Of a stretch of 5,483 nt of DNA, positions 1 to 5,483 are shown piece after piece. Position 1 is the first letter of the stretch; every line of letters begins with the position of its first letter. The position numbers were made by a program, and so were the translations under genes. Location of the stretch: IMG/VR virus record IMGVR_UViG_3300039372_000053; one strand, written 5' to 3'. The DNA is from a virus. Its lineage: Duplodnaviria > Heunggongvirae > Uroviricota > Caudoviricetes. The notes beneath the pieces were generated by a model. The model was given only the letters and a program-made list of their open reading frames with translations. It was not told the origin of the DNA and searched no databases.

Positions 1-436
1 TGAGAGTATTGTCACGATGTTTACGCCCCAGCCATGGAGAAAGTTTTTTCAGGCAGGGAACATCCCGAATCGTCGCCTCCACGTGAGACTTCATAAAATC
101 TTCAGCGGCAGAATCCGTGGGCTGAAAAAGCAGACTGTTTCGGGATTTATGCTCAATAAAATACCCGACCACCCCCAGCAACATCTTTGTATAGCCAACA
201 CGGGCAGATTTAATCAGATTAACAGTCCGGATCTGATCATTCCCCATGCTGTTCATGATGGCGATCTGGAACGGCAGCGTTTTCCATTCTCCCTCACCAT
301 ATGAAGATTCTTTAGGCAGATAATAATTTTGATCAGCCCATTCAACTGGCGTCACCGGCAATGCCCTTATCAGGGGCTGTAATGCTGTTGTGACAGCACT
401 CATCATATTATTCAGTTGTTGCTCTGATATATTCAT
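1..436 (-). CDS. Terminase large subunit (lambda gpA-like), N-terminal ~145 codons only; the gene continues past the window start
   Basis: Not in the ORF track because it has no stop in the window. Reverse-complement translation from ATG at 436..434 gives MNISEQQLNNMMSAVTTALQPLIRALPVTPVEWADQNYYLPKESSYGEGEWKTLPFQIAIMNSMGNDQIRTVNLIKSARVGYTKMLLGVVGYFIEHK..., which aligns closely with the recalled N-terminus of lambda gpA (…VEWADANYYLPKESSYQEGRWETLPFQRAIMNAMGSDYIREVNVVKSARVGYSKMLLGVYAYFIEHK…). It overlaps the 3' end of the small subunit gene by 26 nt, as Nu1/A do in lambda. Confidence 0.9.
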   Translation of the reverse strand, partial: MNISEQQLNNMMSAVTTALQPLIRALPVTPVEWADQNYYLPKESSYGEGEWKTLPFQIAIMNSMGNDQIRTVNLIKSARVGYTKMLLGVVGYFIEHKSRNSLLFQPTDSAAEDFMKSHVEATIRDVPCLKKLSPWLGRKHRDNTL

Positions 437-917
437 CGAGTAAATCCGGTAATTTATCCCCCGCCCGCGCACACTGATTTGCCCCCTTCGCAATAAGGGT
501 TTTCAGATGGTCAAGATGGCGCGGTGTTAAATCAGGAAACTGTCGCTGCATGGATAAAGGGATGGAATCAAGCGTACTGGATAACGCCATTGCCAGCTTG
601 CTGAGAGCAAAAATACAGAACCCGGTATCAATAAGTTTTCCTTTTGACACCTCATTTTTTAACTGCTGTGTAACAGCCTGTTCTGCTGTCAGTTCCCATC
701 TGGCAATAAGCAATTTCTCCTCATAGTCGTCTTCGCTATCGCCATCAGGCACATCGTTTTTACTTCTTCTCAGATACGATATGTAAAAATCGCGCCAGGC
801 ATCCAGATCCAGTTGCCCTCGCTTATTCGATATCGGGGCACCCGGCAATTTCTGCAATCTGCGAAGCTGGCGATCGGTCAGACTTAAATGCCTGGCAACT
901 TCAGTCTGCGTAGCCAC
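408..917 (-). CDS. Terminase small subunit (lambda Nu1-like), 169 aa, GTG start
   Basis: The C-terminal half (…DTGFCIFALSKLAMALSSTLDSIPLSMQRQFPDLTPRHLDHLK…LPDLLDEYIRATTE) aligns with recalled lambda Nu1 (…ETAFCTFVLSRIAGEIASILDGLPLSVQRRFPELENRHVDFLK…IPGLLSEYIEQSG). The N-terminal DNA-binding part is diverged. The first in-frame start after a TGA is GTG at 917..915, preceded by GAGGTGAGGA. The gene sits next to cos and upstream of the large subunit. Confidence 0.9.
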   Translation of the reverse strand: MATQTEVARHLSLTDRQLRRLQKLPGAPISNKRGQLDLDAWRDFYISYLRRSKNDVPDGDSEDDYEEKLLIARWELTAEQAVTQQLKNEVSKGKLIDTGFCIFALSKLAMALSSTLDSIPLSMQRQFPDLTPRHLDHLKTLIAKGANQCARAGDKLPDLLDEYIRATTE

Positions 918-1100: not shown

Positions 1101-1112
1101 AGGTCGCCGCCC
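1101..1112. other. cosN cohesive-end sequence (12-nt overhang segment, lambda-identical)
   Basis: The plus strand reads aggtcgccgccc, whose reverse complement is GGGCGGCGACCT, the lambda cohesive end. The reverse complement of 1068..1112 reproduces about the first 45 nt of the lambda left end as recalled (GGGCGGCGACCTCGCGGGTTTTCGCTATTTATGAAAATTTTCCGG). The plus strand from 1113 (cgtaacctgtcggatcgccggaaaggacc) matches the reverse complement of the lambda right end with one or two substitutions. Confidence 0.88.
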
Positions 1113-1148
1113 CGTAACCTGTCGGATCGCCGGAAAGGACCCGCAAAA

Positions 1149-1163
1149 TGATAATAATTATCA
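1149..1163. promoter_or_regulatory. 15-bp inverted repeat TGATAAT-a-ATTATCA (operator-like site) between cos and the YlcI-like gene
   Basis: Perfect 7-bp arms (tgataat / attatca) around a single central base. A near-identical element (TGATAATGATTATCA) is recalled at the equivalent position of the lambda right end. No binding factor can be assigned from sequence alone. Confidence 0.4.
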
Positions 1164-1311
1164 TCTATATGTCACAACGTGCATCTACGCCATCAAACCA
1201 CGTCAAATAATCAATTATGACGCAGGTATCGTATTAATTGATCTGCATCAACTTAACGTAAAAACAACTTCAGACAATACAAATCAGCGACACTGAATAC
1301 GGGGCAACCTC

Positions 1312-1545
1312 ATGTCAACGAAGAACAAAACCCGCAGAACAACAACCCGCAACATCCGCTTTCCTAACCAAATGATTGAACAAAGTAACATCGCTCTTGA
1401 TCAAAAAGGGTCCGGGAATTTCTCAGCCTGGGTCATTGAAGCCTGCCGCCGGAGACTGTGCTCAGAAAAAAGAGTTTCTCCTGAAGCAAACAAAGAAAAG
1501 AGTGACATTACTGAATTGCTCAGAAAACAGGTCAGACCAGATTGA
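1312..1545 (+). CDS. Small phage protein, DUF3950 / YlcI-like (77 aa)
   Basis: The N-terminus MSTKNKTRRTTTRNIRFPNQMIEQSNIALDQKGSGNFSAWVIEACRRRL matches my recollection of YlcI-type proteins from E. coli lambdoid prophages (DLP12) and of the unannotated ORF at the lambda right end. It is divergent from the terminase genes, as in DLP12. The Shine-Dalgarno is weak (acgggg). Confidence 0.7.
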   Translation: MSTKNKTRRTTTRNIRFPNQMIEQSNIALDQKGSGNFSAWVIEACRRRLCSEKRVSPEANKEKSDITELLRKQVRPD

Positions 1546-1602
1546 AGCAATTTAGATAATCGTGCAGACTACGCCCCCTCATATCACATGGAAGGTTTAT
1601 CT

Positions 1603-2013
1603 ATGGATCAGGTAGTCATTTTTAAACAAATATTTGATAAAGTTCGAAACGATTTAAACTATCAATGGTTTTATTCTGAGCTAAAACGTCACAATGTCTC
1701 ACATTACATTTACTATTTAGCCACAGAGAATGTTCATATTGTATTAAAAAATGATAATACAGTGTTATTAAAGGGCCTAAAAAACATTGTGTCTGTCAAA
1801 TTTTCAAAGGATAGGCATCTTATAGAAACGACCTCTAATAAGCTGAAATCCAGAGAGATCACATTTCAGGAATACAGAAGAAACCTTGCTAAAGCAGGAG
1901 TTTTTCGGTGGGTTACAAATATCCACGAACAAAAAAGATATTACTATACCTTTGATAATTCATTACTCTTTACTGAAAACATACAGAGCACATCACAAAT
2001 GTTTCCACACTAA
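1603..2013 (+). CDS. AT-rich hypothetical protein, 136 aa (moron); possibly DUF1398 / YbcV-YdfO-like by size and position
   Basis: Clean ORF. The track start at 1588 is probably too early: GGAAGG at 1590..1595 lies 7 nt upstream of ATG 1603, giving 136 aa. The product is rich in K/N/Y/F/I. G+C is visibly much lower than the flanks (about one third versus about half, estimated by eye). It sits between the lysis genes and cos on the strand opposite the late operon, where DLP12/Qin carry DUF1398 genes (from memory). Family membership is not verified. Confidence 0.65.
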
Positions 2014-2315: not shown

Positions 2316-2831
2316 TCAATTAATCAGCAGTTCAGGCTGTGTCACCTGCAAGATGTATTCATGCTCGACAGCCAGGACACGCTTCTCTTTCTTCCGTTCG
2401 TTCATTAACCGACTGCCGATCGTACCTTTCAGCTTTGAGCGTGTTTCTTTGGTGGCGTAGCGGTGCTGCATTTCTTCGCCAATTGCCATGCGGCGGCTCA
2501 GTTGCTCTGCCATCCAGTTGAATGCTGCGATATAGCTCTCCTTGATTGCCGCAGCAGCTTTCCCGGTGAACCCCATCACAACCATGATCCAGCCATCTTT
2601 CGTCAGGCTGTACATCGGGCGAACCTTGCCCTGCTCATCGATATAATCAGCCGACGCAAAATTGCGTTGGCTAAACTCACGCGAGCAATCAGCCTTAACC
2701 TGCTCGATTTTCCTGAGAACATCACCGTGTCGCTTGCCGAAGTACTTGGCAATTTTTCTGGATGTGGTAACGACCTCTCCGTTTTTGGCTTGCACCATTT
2801 CTCGGAAGTCGAAGGCTGGAATAACTGAATG
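2316..2831 (-). CDS. Rha-family phage regulatory protein (Phage_pRha domain); 5' end interrupted by the assembly gap
   Basis: The translation contains the signature N-terminal region …GEVVTTSRKIAKYFGKRHGDVLRKIEQV…, typical of Rha proteins. The track starts at Met 2798, but the frame stays open upstream to the N-run (…HSVIPAFDFRE-MVQAKNGE…), so the true N-terminus probably lies in or beyond the gap. Confidence 0.8.
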   Translation of the reverse strand, partial: HSVIPAFDFREMVQAKNGEVVTTSRKIAKYFGKRHGDVLRKIEQVKADCSREFSQRNFASADYIDEQGKVRPMYSLTKDGWIMVVMGFTGKAAAAIKESYIAAFNWMAEQLSRRMAIGEEMQHRYATKETRSKLKGTIGSRLMNERKKEKRVLAVEHEYILQVTQPELLIN

Positions 2832-2841
2832 NNNNNNNNNN
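2832..2841. other. Assembly gap (run of 10 N)
   Basis: Ten consecutive n characters. The length is not a multiple of three and is probably arbitrary, so contiguity and frame across this point are unknown. Confidence 0.99.
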
Positions 2842-3183
2842 AGCGTCTTTACCTTTTAGAAAGTGAGCCTGTCTCACAGAAAAGCCGCCCGAGAGAGGTC
2901 GCCACCTATAACGGCATTTCTCAGGCTCGCTTACTGAAAGGCTCTCGTTAATATGCGCGTGAGATGCGCTGTGAAATTCAGATATAAAAAGCCCCGCGAA
3001 TGCGAGGCTAAATCCTGGTATTTGTAATGAACTGGCTCTTATCTCAACGCAGCCCCTTACTGCGCGCCAGATGCTCAATATCAAGCATCAGCAATGAGAT
3101 GTTTAATCTGGATTTACTCCAGAAGTGATCACCACCCTGTCTACAGAGCCAGATGTGAAGGATGATGAGTAAAATTATTGCTA

Positions 3184-3651
3184 TCATCGAAGGCATTGCG
3201 TCCTAATGTATTCCTGAAGCGTTCTCAGTGCTGTTTGGTCGCGGATAATTCCGTCCCGGATATCGAGAACGTTTCGTCCAGCAACTGGAGAGAGTTCGAC
3301 GGTGGCATCATTGCCCATGCCGGAGGCGCTGGAGGTTTCGGCTGAGGATGGCACAGGGCATTTTCCTTTGACGAGCACCCTGCCACCATTATCAAGCTTC
3401 CGCAGAAGAGCATCATTTTCAGCTTTCGCATCAGCTAACTCCTTCGTGTATTTTGCATCGAGCGCAGCAACATCACGCTGACGCATCTGCATGTCAGTAA
3501 TTGCCGCGTTCGCCAGCTTCAGTTCTCTGACATTTTTGTCGCGCTGGGCTTTGTAGGTAATGGCGTTATCGCGGTAATGATTAACAGCCCATGACAGGCA
3601 GACGATGGTGCAGATAACCAGAGTATAAATAATCGCTGCGACTCTGCTCAC
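3184..3651 (-). CDS. Rz: Rz i-spanin (inner-membrane spanin subunit), start GTG at 3651..3649
   Basis: From the GTG the protein reads [40 protein letters not shown]…[30 protein letters not shown]…, near-identical in its N-terminal two thirds to recalled lambda Rz ([82 protein letters not shown]…). The track start (TTG at 3666) is 5 codons too long. GTG overlaps the endolysin TGA stop (GTGA), and GGGGGA lies 7 nt upstream. Confidence 0.9.
3225..3431 (-). CDS. Rz1: Rz1 o-spanin (outer-membrane lipoprotein), embedded in the +1 frame of Rz
   Basis: [21 protein letters not shown]… has a lipoprotein signal and lipobox (VAGC), followed by a proline-rich mature part ([11 protein letters not shown]). 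This matches recalled lambda Rz1 (MLKLKMMLCVMMLPLVVVGC…PPPPPAW). It is fully embedded in Rz, and GAAGGAG lies 7 nt upstream of the ATG. Confidence 0.85.
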
Positions 3652-4181
3652 TGATCTATCCCCCAACAGGCTAATGCGCTTTCCTGGTCACGACGAATAA
3701 CCTGTCCATAGCAGTTATTTGAACGTATGCGGCAATCGCGCCCACCATCTTTTATCCACCAGCGAATCGCCTCGCATGCGCCCTTACGATCACCGGCATT
3801 CAGCCGCTTATAAAACGTCGACGGGAAACACTTACCGGGGCCAATGTTATAGGGACAGAATGACGCTATACCCGCTTTCTGTGGTTCGGTCAGTGGTACT
3901 TTAATATTGCGCTCCACCCATGCCAGCGCCTTATCACGTTCAATAGCGTTAACCTGGTCGCATTTTTCCTTCGACAGCCTCATTCCCGGTATGACGGGCT
4001 TACCATCCACCATTGTGGCACCACGACAGATGGTCCATATACCGGAACCATCGCGGTATGCCGTTGTGTGGTTACCTTCTTTTTCATCCAGAAACTGGTC
4101 GAGAATATCAGGCGCAGGCGCACCGACGGCAATCAGTGCCAGAACGGCAGCCGACAGGCCGTATCTGATTTTTGCGTTCAT
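3648..4181 (-). CDS. SAR endolysin (T4-type lysozyme, glycoside hydrolase family 24) with N-terminal signal-anchor-release domain, 177 aa
   Basis: The N-terminus [27 protein letters not shown] is a Gly/Ala-rich weakly hydrophobic segment typical of SAR domains. It is followed by the lysozyme catalytic region [20 protein letters not shown]. The organisation resembles phage 21 R and E. coli prophage lysozymes (RrrD/RrrQ type). It lies between the holin and Rz. Confidence 0.9.
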
Positions 4182-4286: not shown

Positions 4287-4559
4287 ATGGACAATAGCAC
4301 CATTTCTCTACAGGAGTTGCTCGACTGCATTTCCAAGCTTCGGGATGATGTAAATGCCCTTACTGTCGCATTTTCATATCTGGCATTCTCAATTCCCAAG
4401 GAACAAATGCAACCAACACTGGCATCGCTCCAGCTTGAATCACTCAACCCCAAATGGTCCCAGCAACAACAAAATTCTTTCAAGTGGCTGGCGGTATTAC
4501 TGGAAGAAAAATATGCTGGTGAAATTACCATTTCGGCGGAGTCTTCAGTGAACCAGTAA
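4287..4559 (+). CDS. Candidate small protein (90 aa) antisense to the late/lysis operon; function unknown
   Basis: ATG at 4287 is preceded by AGAGAGGA (4272..4279) with a 7-nt spacer. The track's TTG start at 4281 is less likely. The translation MDNSTISLQELLDCISKLRDDVNALTVAFSYLAFSIPKEQMQ…WLAVLLEEKYAGEITISAESSVNQ has ordinary helical-protein composition, whereas the competing minus-strand frame is Cys/Ser-rich with rare codons. A weak hairpin plus T4 follows at 4602..4628. Its 3' end overlaps the convergent ORF 4525..4869 by 35 nt. No homolog is recognised. Confidence 0.4.
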   Translation: MDNSTISLQELLDCISKLRDDVNALTVAFSYLAFSIPKEQMQPTLASLQLESLNPKWSQQQQNSFKWLAVLLEEKYAGEITISAESSVNQ

Positions 4560-4869
4560 TTCTTCCCGGCAGTTTTCCTTTGTAGGTTATCCACACACCC
4601 TGCGCCTCTAAAATTATGGGGCGCTTTTCCGGTGACTGCTCATCCCCTTCACATAACCCGGCAGCAACATCCAGGAAGACCTGTCTGATGCTCCTTCTGG
4701 CTGCTGCCTCATAAAACCCCAGCGCGGCACCTTCAACACGGTCCAGCGAGATGTCCAGGTCAAAAATTTCACCGTCAAAGCGTTTTTTGTCCCGTAACGC
4801 TAAAGTTACCGTAACTTTATTCTCAAAATTGCGGATCCCTTTCACAATCAGTTCATAGTTTTGAATCAT
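4525..4869 (-). CDS. Hypothetical protein (114 aa) translationally coupled to the holin; possibly DUF1327 / YdfR-like by size and position
   Basis: ATG at 4869 lies 4 nt after the holin TAA stop (4876..4874). GGGGAGAG lies 7 nt upstream, inside the holin 3' end. The protein is soluble-looking and acidic (MIQNYELIVKGIRNFENKVTVTLALRDKKRFDGEIFDLD…). From memory, the Qin prophage has a DUF1327 gene (ydfR) between its holin and lysozyme; sequence identity is not verified. Confidence 0.7.
   Translation of the reverse strand: MIQNYELIVKGIRNFENKVTVTLALRDKKRFDGEIFDLDISLDRVEGAALGFYEAAARRSIRQVFLDVAAGLCEGDEQSPEKRPIILEAQGVWITYKGKLPGRITGSLKTPPKW
4602..4628 (+). terminator. Weak candidate terminator downstream of the antisense ORF
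   Basis: 5-bp stem gcgcc (4602..4606) pairs with ggcgc (4620..4624) around a 13-nt loop, followed by tttt (4625..4628). The stem is short and the loop long, so this is marginal. Confidence 0.25.
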
Positions 4870-4873
4870 TGAA

Positions 4874-5089
4874 TTACTCTCCCCGCGCAGCCTTACGACG
4901 GTCCTCTCTGATTTTGAAATACAGGTTAGTCAGATATGTCAGGAAGCCCAGAACCAGACTCCCCAGTACACCAATCGCAGCCCACTGTGACGGACTGACC
5001 TGATCAAGCCACTGTAAAAACCAGTAGCCAGCACTGCCTGCGGAGGTGCCGTAGGCAATGCCCGTTGAAATTTTATCCATGGATTTCAT
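4874..5089 (-). CDS. Class II holin, phage 21 S21-type pinholin (71 aa) with dual-start motif
   Basis: [71 protein letters not shown] matches recalled S21 / EssD. It has two transmembrane segments, and Met1-Lys-Ser-Met4 gives the antiholin/holin dual start. GGAGGTGAGG lies immediately upstream. The track's extension to 5188 is an open-frame artefact. Confidence 0.9.
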
Positions 5090-5254: not shown

Positions 5255-5260
5255 GCATGT

Positions 5261-5290
5261 AAAAAGGCCCCAACACATGTGCGTGGGGCC
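5261..5290 (-). terminator. Rho-independent terminator (minus strand), candidate late-operon tR'-like terminator upstream of the holin
   Basis: GC-rich stem ggcccca (5266..5272) pairs with tggggcc (5284..5290) around an 11-nt loop. On the minus strand it is followed by TTTTT (5265..5261). It lies about 170 bp upstream of the holin start in the direction of late transcription. Confidence 0.55.
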
Positions 5291-5483
5291 TGAGAGTATA
5301 CATGGTTTCAGTCAACTGCATGGTGCCGGGTGCCTCCCGGTGAATTCAGTACCAGCACCTGAATCCGCGATTATCCCATATACCTACTCGCTGATTGCCC
5401 CTCCGCACAGGGGGATTCACCATGCCAGTTTCTTTTAACAAACTCCCCGCAAACCAGACAACAGTCAACCGCCTGAATTGTGA

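Follow-up and report, generated by a model that had tools for sequence, protein, structure and literature searches.

Phage lambda carries bor and lom, lysogenic-conversion genes or ‘morons’, in its late region but outside late-operon function. Both genes are non-essential, deviate in composition and occupy variable slots, and both encode exported envelope proteins with known phenotypes. The direct neighbour of bor, in the same orientation, is lambdap78 (47048-47452, complement), a relative of ybcV in DLP12 and of ydfO in the Qin prophage of E. coli K-12. Our literature searches found no functional study of DUF1398, ydfO, ybcV, lambdap78, ynfO/ylcI/DUF3950 or the ydfO product structure 2HH8, and no lysogen phenotype for any DUF1398 gene. 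What has been published is a dispensability result for lambdap78 and, for the paralogs in cryptic prophages, which are transcribed and respond to stimuli, expression changes and a single overexpression phenotype. In a CRISPRi screen lambdap78 is non-essential and dispensable for plaque formation (PMC10695390). Expression of ydfO rises 116-fold in ionic liquid (PMC4077768), that of ybcV more than 1000-fold upon overproduction of T4 MotB, which copurifies with H-NS (PMC7827196), and that of ybcVW within 5 min of induction of a DNase toxin (PMC12607911); overexpression of ybcV changes glycogen content (PMC2853380). Two entries in this record need correction or care. ydfO has been listed among ‘essential’ targets (PMC8229198), yet Qin can be removed from the chromosome in its entirety (PMC3105296). 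Furthermore, YdfO is stated to raise oxidative-stress resistance (PMC4077768), but the paper cited for this (Wang et al. 2010, PMC3105296) names YfdK, YfdO and YfdS of CPS-53 and never ydfO. The oxidative-stress phenotype is a gene-name mix-up between ydfO and yfdO, and it belongs to yfdO.

Here, we analysed a 5,483-nt stretch of phage DNA (the window, meaning this stretch at its full length), which comes from a lambdoid prophage of E. coli and runs the reverse way relative to the standard lambda map (Table 1). Prophages of CFT073 and related ST73 strains match positions 1000-2400 at 99.9% identity, and in CFT073 the counterpart region lies within a prophage that looks complete, having terminase, portal, capsid, tail, lysis and Q genes. 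The gene for a Rha-family regulator, whose start codon is masked by a run of Ns at 2832-2841 (as seen by alignment across the run), is the downstream limit of the slot between the lysis genes and cos; it lies outside the accessory cassette and is convergent with ydfO.

Table 1 Features of the window, with coordinates, strand and supporting evidence
Feature	Position	Strand	Evidence or remark
Nu1	408-917	-	Pfam
cosN	1101-1112	-	AGGTCGCCGCCC, the reverse complement of the lambda cohesive end GGGCGGCGACCT; right end of the phage chromosome
cos-proximal 200-bp block	1113-1311	+	Near-identical in window, lambda, Qin and DLP12
ynfO (DUF3950, PF13132)	1312-1545	+	Pfam E 4.1e-19; PHROG 949
PdhR-type box AACAGGTCAGACCAGAT	1526-1542	+	Core GGTnnnACC; within the last ynfO codons
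ynfO stop and spacer/ydfO leader	1543-1602	+	TGA 1543-1545, then 57 nt; Shine-Dalgarno GGAAGG 1590-1595
ydfO (DUF1398, PF07166)	1603-2013	+	136 aa; 31.4% G+C
Rha-family regulator (PF09669)	2316-2840	-	Pfam E 1.8e-28; CFT073 annotation
Rz	3184-3651	-	Pfam
Lysozyme	3648-4181	-	Pfam
DUF1327/YdfR	4525-4869	-	Pfam
P21-type holin	4874-5089	-	Pfam

The gene that an initial annotation had singled out for its composition is, with essential certainty, ydfO, a DUF1398 member of the lambdoid accessory cassette between the lysis genes and cos. That annotation had guessed the family PF07166 and was right: residues 8-126 of the product match model positions 1-119 of 119, that is, end to end (E 1.5e-46, 157.8 bits, against a gathering threshold of 22 bits). 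The product is approximately 96% identical to Qin YdfO, for which an NMR structure is available (PDB 2HH8, NESG target ER251), and 78% identical to lambdap78; DLP12 YbcV and lambdap78 are its positional orthologs (77-78% identity). PhiR70_1, a phage that forms plaques, has the gene in this same context, and its protein is 100% identical. At the DNA level, with a copy required to span at least 80% of the gene, 3011 of the 5426 complete E. coli genomes have ydfO, often as multiple copies. The ydfO of the window is an already known and very common gene that does not depart from its well-sampled relatives, and the window adds no new kind of element. Nonetheless, ydfO/lambdap78 is among the few phage lambda genes still without a function, although more than half of complete E. 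coli genomes carry it. Since it is a lambda gene, is widespread and has a fold with no relative in the PDB, a function for it would fill a gap in the best-studied phage. Whereas Qin is a cryptic remnant, the prophage around the window copy is apparently complete, with genes for terminase, head, tail and lysis, and downstream of this copy lies Rha rather than gnsB-ynfN-cspI.

The low G+C content of the gene, which had been estimated by eye, is fully borne out by measurement. The remainder of the window has 48.0% G+C and each other gene 44-52%, compared with GC1, GC2 and GC3 values of 38.0, 24.8 and 31.4 in ydfO. Measured against 411-nt windows without overlap with ydfO (minimum 40.6%, mean 48.0%, s.d. 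2.7), the gene has a z-score of -6.2 and is clearly distinguishable from its flanks. In a 60-nt profile the trough extends from 1591 to 2010, and the low-G+C stretch therefore coincides with the ORF. The gene also deviates in amino-acid content, with Phe, Tyr, Met, Ile, Asn and Lys making up 39% of the product as against 20-31% in the neighbours. In codon usage, rare codons at 9.6% are only in slight excess of the 3.8-8.8% of neighbouring genes. Hence, what deviates in ydfO is base composition (GC3) and amino-acid content. The start codon at 1603 is backed by the GGAAGG motif 7 nt upstream, by the RefSeq annotation of CFT073 and by the same methionine in distant homologs.

The gene does lie on the strand opposite to the late genes: ydfO is on the plus strand and Nu1, Rha, Rz, lysozyme, DUF1327 and holin are all on the minus strand. 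The description of it as next to cos and divergent from the late operon needs qualification on both counts. Its start is 491 nt from cosN, but it is the second gene from cos because ynfO sits in between, and the term divergent applies with regard to Nu1 and the head genes, whereas ydfO and the Rha and lysis genes converge. The order Nu1/nohA (-), cos, ynfO (+), ydfO (+) is common to the window and Qin. In lambda and DLP12 the same DUF3950-DUF1398 pair (ylcI and ybcV/lambdap78) is split by ybcW/lambdap79 on the other strand and is followed by bor, whereas both ybcW and bor are absent from the window. The lambda homolog of ynfO/ylcI is at 48142-48303 (complement), where RefSeq has no annotation. 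In other respects lambdap78 and ybcV closely resemble the window gene, given that they lie on the strand opposite to the late genes, approximately 1 kb from the right cos end, with approximately 32% G+C, the same leader and a box at -74. The cassette layout is conserved in CFT073, Qin, DLP12, lambda and PhiR70_1. The contents of the lysis-cos slot, in contrast, vary across lambda, DLP12, Qin, CFT073, PhiR70_1 and L007: bor, ybcV and ybcW are found in lambda and DLP12, gnsB...cspI and ydfO in Qin, and Rha and ydfO in the window. In other E. coli prophages (L007-type), the same slot, between Nu1/cos and Rz, has on the opposite strand a DUF1398 variant only 26% identical to the window protein (P0333), without a DUF3950 partner.

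The DNA between cos and ynfO is highly uniform, with a mean column identity of 93% in the block at 1113-1311 and approximately 195 bp ahead of the ynfO ATG that are identical in the window, lambda, Qin and DLP12. The block contains a perfect 8-nt palindrome (1148-1164) and a 13-nt inverted repeat (1210-1222 / 1230-1242), and any operator or predicted promoter of ynfO must lie within it. A consensus scan of the plus strand around the cassette found no sigma-70-like site and no terminator, and we therefore infer independent transcription of the window ydfO from its paralogs. The ynfO product is a basic protein of 77 aa (pI 10.4) of the YlcI/YnfO family, with a conserved part, residues 1-50, and a variable tail. 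Its gene shares a reading frame with ydfO, and one TGA and 19 sense codons lie between the two. A natural YnfO-YdfO fusion has been catalogued as a protein cluster (P0001, 233 aa, 761 members), but the contig DNA has a TGA at the junction; therefore this DUF3950-DUF1398 fusion is an artefact of gene calling with genetic code 4, in which TGA is read as Trp.

The initial annotation took the low G+C as the signature of horizontal acquisition. As a statement about recent import this does not hold. The ydfO and ybcV/lambdap78 lineages have diverged to a dS of 0.45-0.58, and the copies in lambda, DLP12, Qin and the window nevertheless all have a GC3 of 0.29-0.31. Because low GC3 is common to lineages separated by a dS of approximately 0.5, it is an old and maintained family trait and not a mark of fresh import. 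DUF1398 genes are below their flanks elsewhere too: 54% G+C against 60% in K. pneumoniae, 42.5% against 56% in Pseudocitrobacter, 44% against 54% in a JGI genome, and 38% against 52% for the divergent E. coli prophage variant. Over the same divergence dN/dS is 0.18-0.23, and hence the YdfO protein is under purifying selection.

The family is small. A HMMER scan of 1.84 billion representative proteins gave 196 matches at E ≤ 0.001, and the named members are from Escherichia, Raoultella, Klebsiella, Kluyvera and Pseudocitrobacter. The chromosomal genes, namely ycgX in E. coli and the DUF1398 genes of Klebsiella, Raoultella, Kluyvera and Pseudocitrobacter, are single-gene units with G+C below their flanks, and their products share the conserved residues of the family. 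They differ in being only 25-37% identical to the window protein, away from cos, and without a DUF3950 partner or a PdhR-type box. In K. pneumoniae, where one cluster has 776 member sequences, the orphan lies between tusA and pmp3/gapA; in Pseudocitrobacter it follows an aryl-polyene cluster, in Kluyvera it is beside a cold-shock gene near icd, and on another contig it is beside a MerR gene. No conserved gene partner of non-phage DUF1398 was found in six chromosomal contexts, and lone orphans in such unrelated neighbourhoods indicate that the protein works without a dedicated partner. The family alignment has no stretch conserved enough for degenerate-pattern scans of contigs.

YdfO is a soluble, basic and cytoplasmic protein. 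As the initial annotation had stated, hydropathy gives no transmembrane segment or signal peptide, with a maximum 19-residue Kyte-Doolittle mean of 0.48 (threshold approximately 1.6), a GRAVY of -0.56 and a pI of 9.6. The fold, as in 2HH8, is a tandem alpha-alpha-beta3 duplication, with the first repeat formed by helices 3-17 and 20-29 and strands 32-38, 44-48 and 53-56, and the second by helices 71-82 and 88-97 and strands 102-106, 111-115 and 121-126; the two halves align weakly. This fold is well defined and kept down to 25% identity, and no structural relative of it was found in the PDB. In an alignment of 16 sequences reaching down to 21% identity, L27, T41 and G99 are invariant and Y35, N43, A96, W103 and Y114 occur in at least 90%; all of these residues are present in the window copy. 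Most of the conserved residues are aromatic, aliphatic or small, and no recognisable catalytic set is found among them in the 16-sequence alignment. We therefore consider stoichiometric binding the most likely mode of action: YdfO is most likely a binder rather than an enzyme, judging from the absence of motifs and of structural relatives, which as negative evidence carries little weight.

A pointer to how ydfO may be controlled is the PdhR-type box, which occurs once in the window (0 expected) and lies 73 nt upstream of the ydfO ATG. The exact 17-mer AACAGGTCAGACCAGAT is a PdhR gSELEX site in Qin that is bound in vitro, the sole kind of PdhR evidence for ydfO itself, and in a pdhR mutant ybcV mRNA is 10-fold lower (PMC7660256). 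The core of the box, which is expected by chance approximately once per 3.7 kb, is found at -73/-74 in the window, Qin, DLP12 and lambda, whereas seven other DUF1398 genes lack it in their upstream DNA. The ydfO-type and ybcV-type loci become homologous approximately 77 nt before the ATG, at GGTCAGACC, so that the box is the left boundary of their homology, and the ydfO leader is conserved in lambda and DLP12. The AT-rich DNA of the gene itself may attract H-NS-type silencing in E. coli; the one observation that bears on this is the response of ybcV to MotB, and H-NS binding to ydfO is not reported in the literature searched.

Taken together, we tentatively favour, at somewhat short of even odds, the reading that ydfO is a moron-type gene under host control outside the late programme and that its product binds a host macromolecule. 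Several traits of morons are seen here, namely the deviant composition (z = -6.2) and the variable slot, with dispensability taken over from lambdap78 (PMC10695390). By analogy with this non-essential lambda ortholog, and from its variable slot, ydfO appears to be accessory. Lying outside the late operon, it would be transcribed antisense to late transcription from host-controlled signals, which probably include the conserved 77-nt leader starting at the PdhR-type box, and H-NS-like proteins would likely silence the AT-rich ORF as well. Host-controlled signals outside the late operon would in turn mean that the protein is made while the phage is a prophage, or in certain host conditions, rather than as a virion or lysis component. 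The product, small, basic and soluble, with two alpha-alpha-beta3 repeats and no catalytic residues conserved across the family, would most likely work in a stoichiometric way, attaching to a protein or nucleic acid of the host (or phage) and thereby modulating host physiology. In position and composition ydfO resembles bor and lom, with the difference that these encode exported envelope proteins of known phenotype whereas YdfO is cytoplasmic and has no detected promoter or terminator.

The most serious of the other readings, which we nevertheless regard as unlikely, is that ynfO-ydfO acts in anti-defence or at entry, being read at once from incoming unsilenced DNA so as to counter a defence of the host, in the manner of leading-end genes in T7, T5 or conjugative plasmids. 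Lambda DNA enters the cell right end first, which puts the cassette on the part of the chromosome that is first out of the virion; it begins 200 nt from cosN and points inward, and the range of DUF1398 variants in the slot, down to 26% identity, fits the pattern of an arms race. In addition, Vulcan, a defence system, senses the adjacent lambdap79, and lambda-vir escapers exchange the region by recombination with Qin and so gain the arrangement without ybcW (2026 preprint, bioRxiv 10.64898/2026.09.04.749371). However, a dN/dS of approximately 0.2 in the lambda-type clade points to purifying and not diversifying selection, the stable chromosomal orphans in Klebsiella and relatives, including the 776-member K. 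pneumoniae cluster, are hard to square with anti-defence, and such a phenotype is absent from the literature searched, with knockdown of lambdap78 having no effect on plating (PMC10695390). The suggestion of the initial annotation that genes at such positions serve lysogenic conversion, superinfection exclusion or anti-defence found no evidence here: PADLOC-DB 2.0 gave no significant defence match (the only match was Csx23, E 0.013, 13.5 bits), and the literature searched has no phenotype of this kind. Slightly less probable again is that ynfO/ylcI and the DUF1398 gene form a leading-end module, possibly wired to the host pyruvate sensor PdhR, in which YdfO would bind and disarm or reprogram a host defence factor or metabolic regulator in the first minutes of infection and in the lysogen. 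We consider it improbable that the two genes are a toxin-antitoxin or abortive-infection pair, with YnfO as ribbon-helix-helix antitoxin and autorepressor and YdfO as toxin, even though a small basic upstream ORF is followed 57 nt on by another small ORF on the same strand. The strand-helix-Gly-turn-helix pattern of YnfO and its NIRFP motif resembling NLRWP of Arc do suggest a ribbon-helix-helix protein, and the inverted repeats upstream would also fit such a pair. Yet hhalign aligns NIRFP with NLRWP of Arc only weakly (P 0.017, probability 2.7%), no ribbon-helix-helix Pfam family matches YnfO at E ≤ 10, and the AF2 model (pLDDT 62; coil 1-18, helices 19-32 and 34-53) has no Foldseek match in the PDB. 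Furthermore, ybcW splits the pair in lambda and DLP12, and DUF1398 genes stand alone in several genera and in L007-type prophages, so that there is no strict co-occurrence. Nor is YdfO homologous to a known toxin family; E. coli has been used to overproduce it for NMR, and a viable ASKA clone of ybcV exists.

The two remaining alternatives either leave the YdfO protein with little or no function or make it a structural protein. In the first, the ORF counts chiefly as AT-rich DNA, perhaps by nucleating H-NS and so insulating or silencing DNA close to cos or stopping late read-through. This would account for a sharp 31% G+C trough that matches the ORF and is kept across diverged lineages, and the ybcV transcript data are compatible with H-NS-dependent repression (PMC7827196). 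We nonetheless rate it as very improbable, a shade below the toxin-antitoxin pair, given that a dN/dS of 0.18-0.23 reflects amino-acid constraint, that the fold is well defined and kept to 25% identity, and that the Klebsiella copies are retained at 54% G+C. Least credible of all is a structural protein, as in the label ‘head protein’ (PHROG 413, RefSeq lambda) or the older label ‘envelope protein’. Both readings come from database labels only, and the labels are unsupported. ydfO is not part of the head module and runs opposite to the late operon, its lambda ortholog is non-essential (PMC10695390), YdfO has neither signal peptide nor transmembrane segment and no structural similarity to capsid or envelope proteins, and non-phage chromosomal homologs exist. 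The initial annotation held that a match to a structural phage family would speak against its view of the gene. Formally PHROG 413 provides such a label, but we do not count it as a refutation because position, strand, dispensability and non-phage homologs contradict it.

For a host-regulated moron, as we favour, the unit to be tested is defined as the box, the 77-nt leader and the ORF, with ynfO upstream, and PhiR70_1 is a plaque-forming carrier of the identical protein. Rfam has no match within or close to ydfO, and its sole match in the window is STnc100 at 5255-5454.

The flagged AT-rich gene ydfO (DUF1398) and its upstream neighbor ynfO (DUF3950; ylcI family) share one reading frame (window 1312-2013), in which they are separated by only one TGA and 19 sense codons (junction 1543-1602). 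A cluster of 761 protein sequences of 233 aa that carry both DUF3950 and DUF1398 (P0001) corresponds exactly to ynfO-ydfO read through, with the TGA taken as tryptophan. Because the TGA is present in the contigs underlying this cluster, we rejected a natural DUF3950-DUF1398 fusion and attribute it to a gene-calling artefact, in which genetic code 4 was picked on short AT-rich contigs.

A PdhR-type box upstream of the DUF1398 gene is kept in all four lambda-type loci, and in the E. coli K-12 prophages Qin and DLP12 and in lambda it is found at -73/-74 from the DUF1398 ATG. Between ydfO-type and ybcV-type loci (the latter being the lambda and DLP12 form), homology starts exactly at this box. At the sequence level, the conservation of the box and the onset of homology there suggest a mobile unit consisting of box, leader and ORF. 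In other E. coli lambdoid prophages (L007-L009), the ydfO slot from Nu1/cos to Rz is filled, likewise on the opposite strand, by a divergent DUF1398 variant with just 26% identity to the window protein (8001-8534 in L007, 177 aa as called).

Phage lambda (NC_001416) holds a ynfO/ylcI homolog without annotation at 48142-48303, complement (3143-3304, minus strand, in our lambda locus L002), with the right cos end lying approximately 200 bp away. Its residues 1-54 are 93% identical and the frame extends for 64 aa up to the stop. The 200-bp block from cos to ynfO is nearly unchanged across the window prophage, lambda, Qin and DLP12, and the palindrome and inverted repeat inside it could be operators or packaging signals.

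Sequence features of the window
Feature	Position	Strand	Remarks
Perfect 8-nt palindrome	1148-1164		ATGATAAT A ATTATCAT; inside cos-to-ynfO block
13-nt inverted repeat	1210-1242		ATCAATTATGACG / CGTATTAATTGAT; inside cos-to-ynfO block
PdhR-type box	1526-1542		GGTCAGACC
50-aa ORF	3044-3196	-	downstream of Rz; hypothetical in CFT073 annotation
Rz1-type ORF	3225-3431	-	lipobox-like LIMVAGCSS; nested in Rz gene
Second opposite-strand ORF, 90 aa	4287-4559	+	44% G+C; PHROG 2411; within lysis cassette
sRNA family STnc100	5255-5454	-	Rfam, full length, 139 bits vs gathering score 47

The second opposite-strand ORF shares 35 nt with the DUF1327/YdfR gene, at the 3' end of the latter; it had no match in Pfam, is annotated as hypothetical in CFT073 and is a candidate further accessory gene. 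The STnc100 match is positioned upstream of the holin gene, where a Q-dependent late leader would be expected.

Some published statements needed correction. An oxidative-stress phenotype given for YdfO (PMC4077768) was rejected, as it belongs to YfdO of CPS-53 (PMC3105296). A list of ‘essential’ E. coli drug targets includes ydfO (PMC8229198), yet the entire Qin prophage is deletable. The 48,361-bp record MW057783.1, ‘Campylobacter phage CJLB-4’, includes a lambda-type ybcV whose coordinates resemble those in lambda, and YlcI proteins (P0378, P0440, P0363 and P0410) are filed under Staphylococcus aureus, Bacillus and the spider Caerostris extrusa. Contamination of the records of other organisms by DNA from lambda or E. 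coli appears to account for these entries. DUF1398, ynfO and ylcI are also named in a fungal genome paper.

In the window itself, 10 N at 2832-2841 stand in for 9 nt (ATTATTCAT) of CFT073 and mask the Rha-family start codon, so that this gene is shortened to 2316-2798 in the mechanical ORF list.
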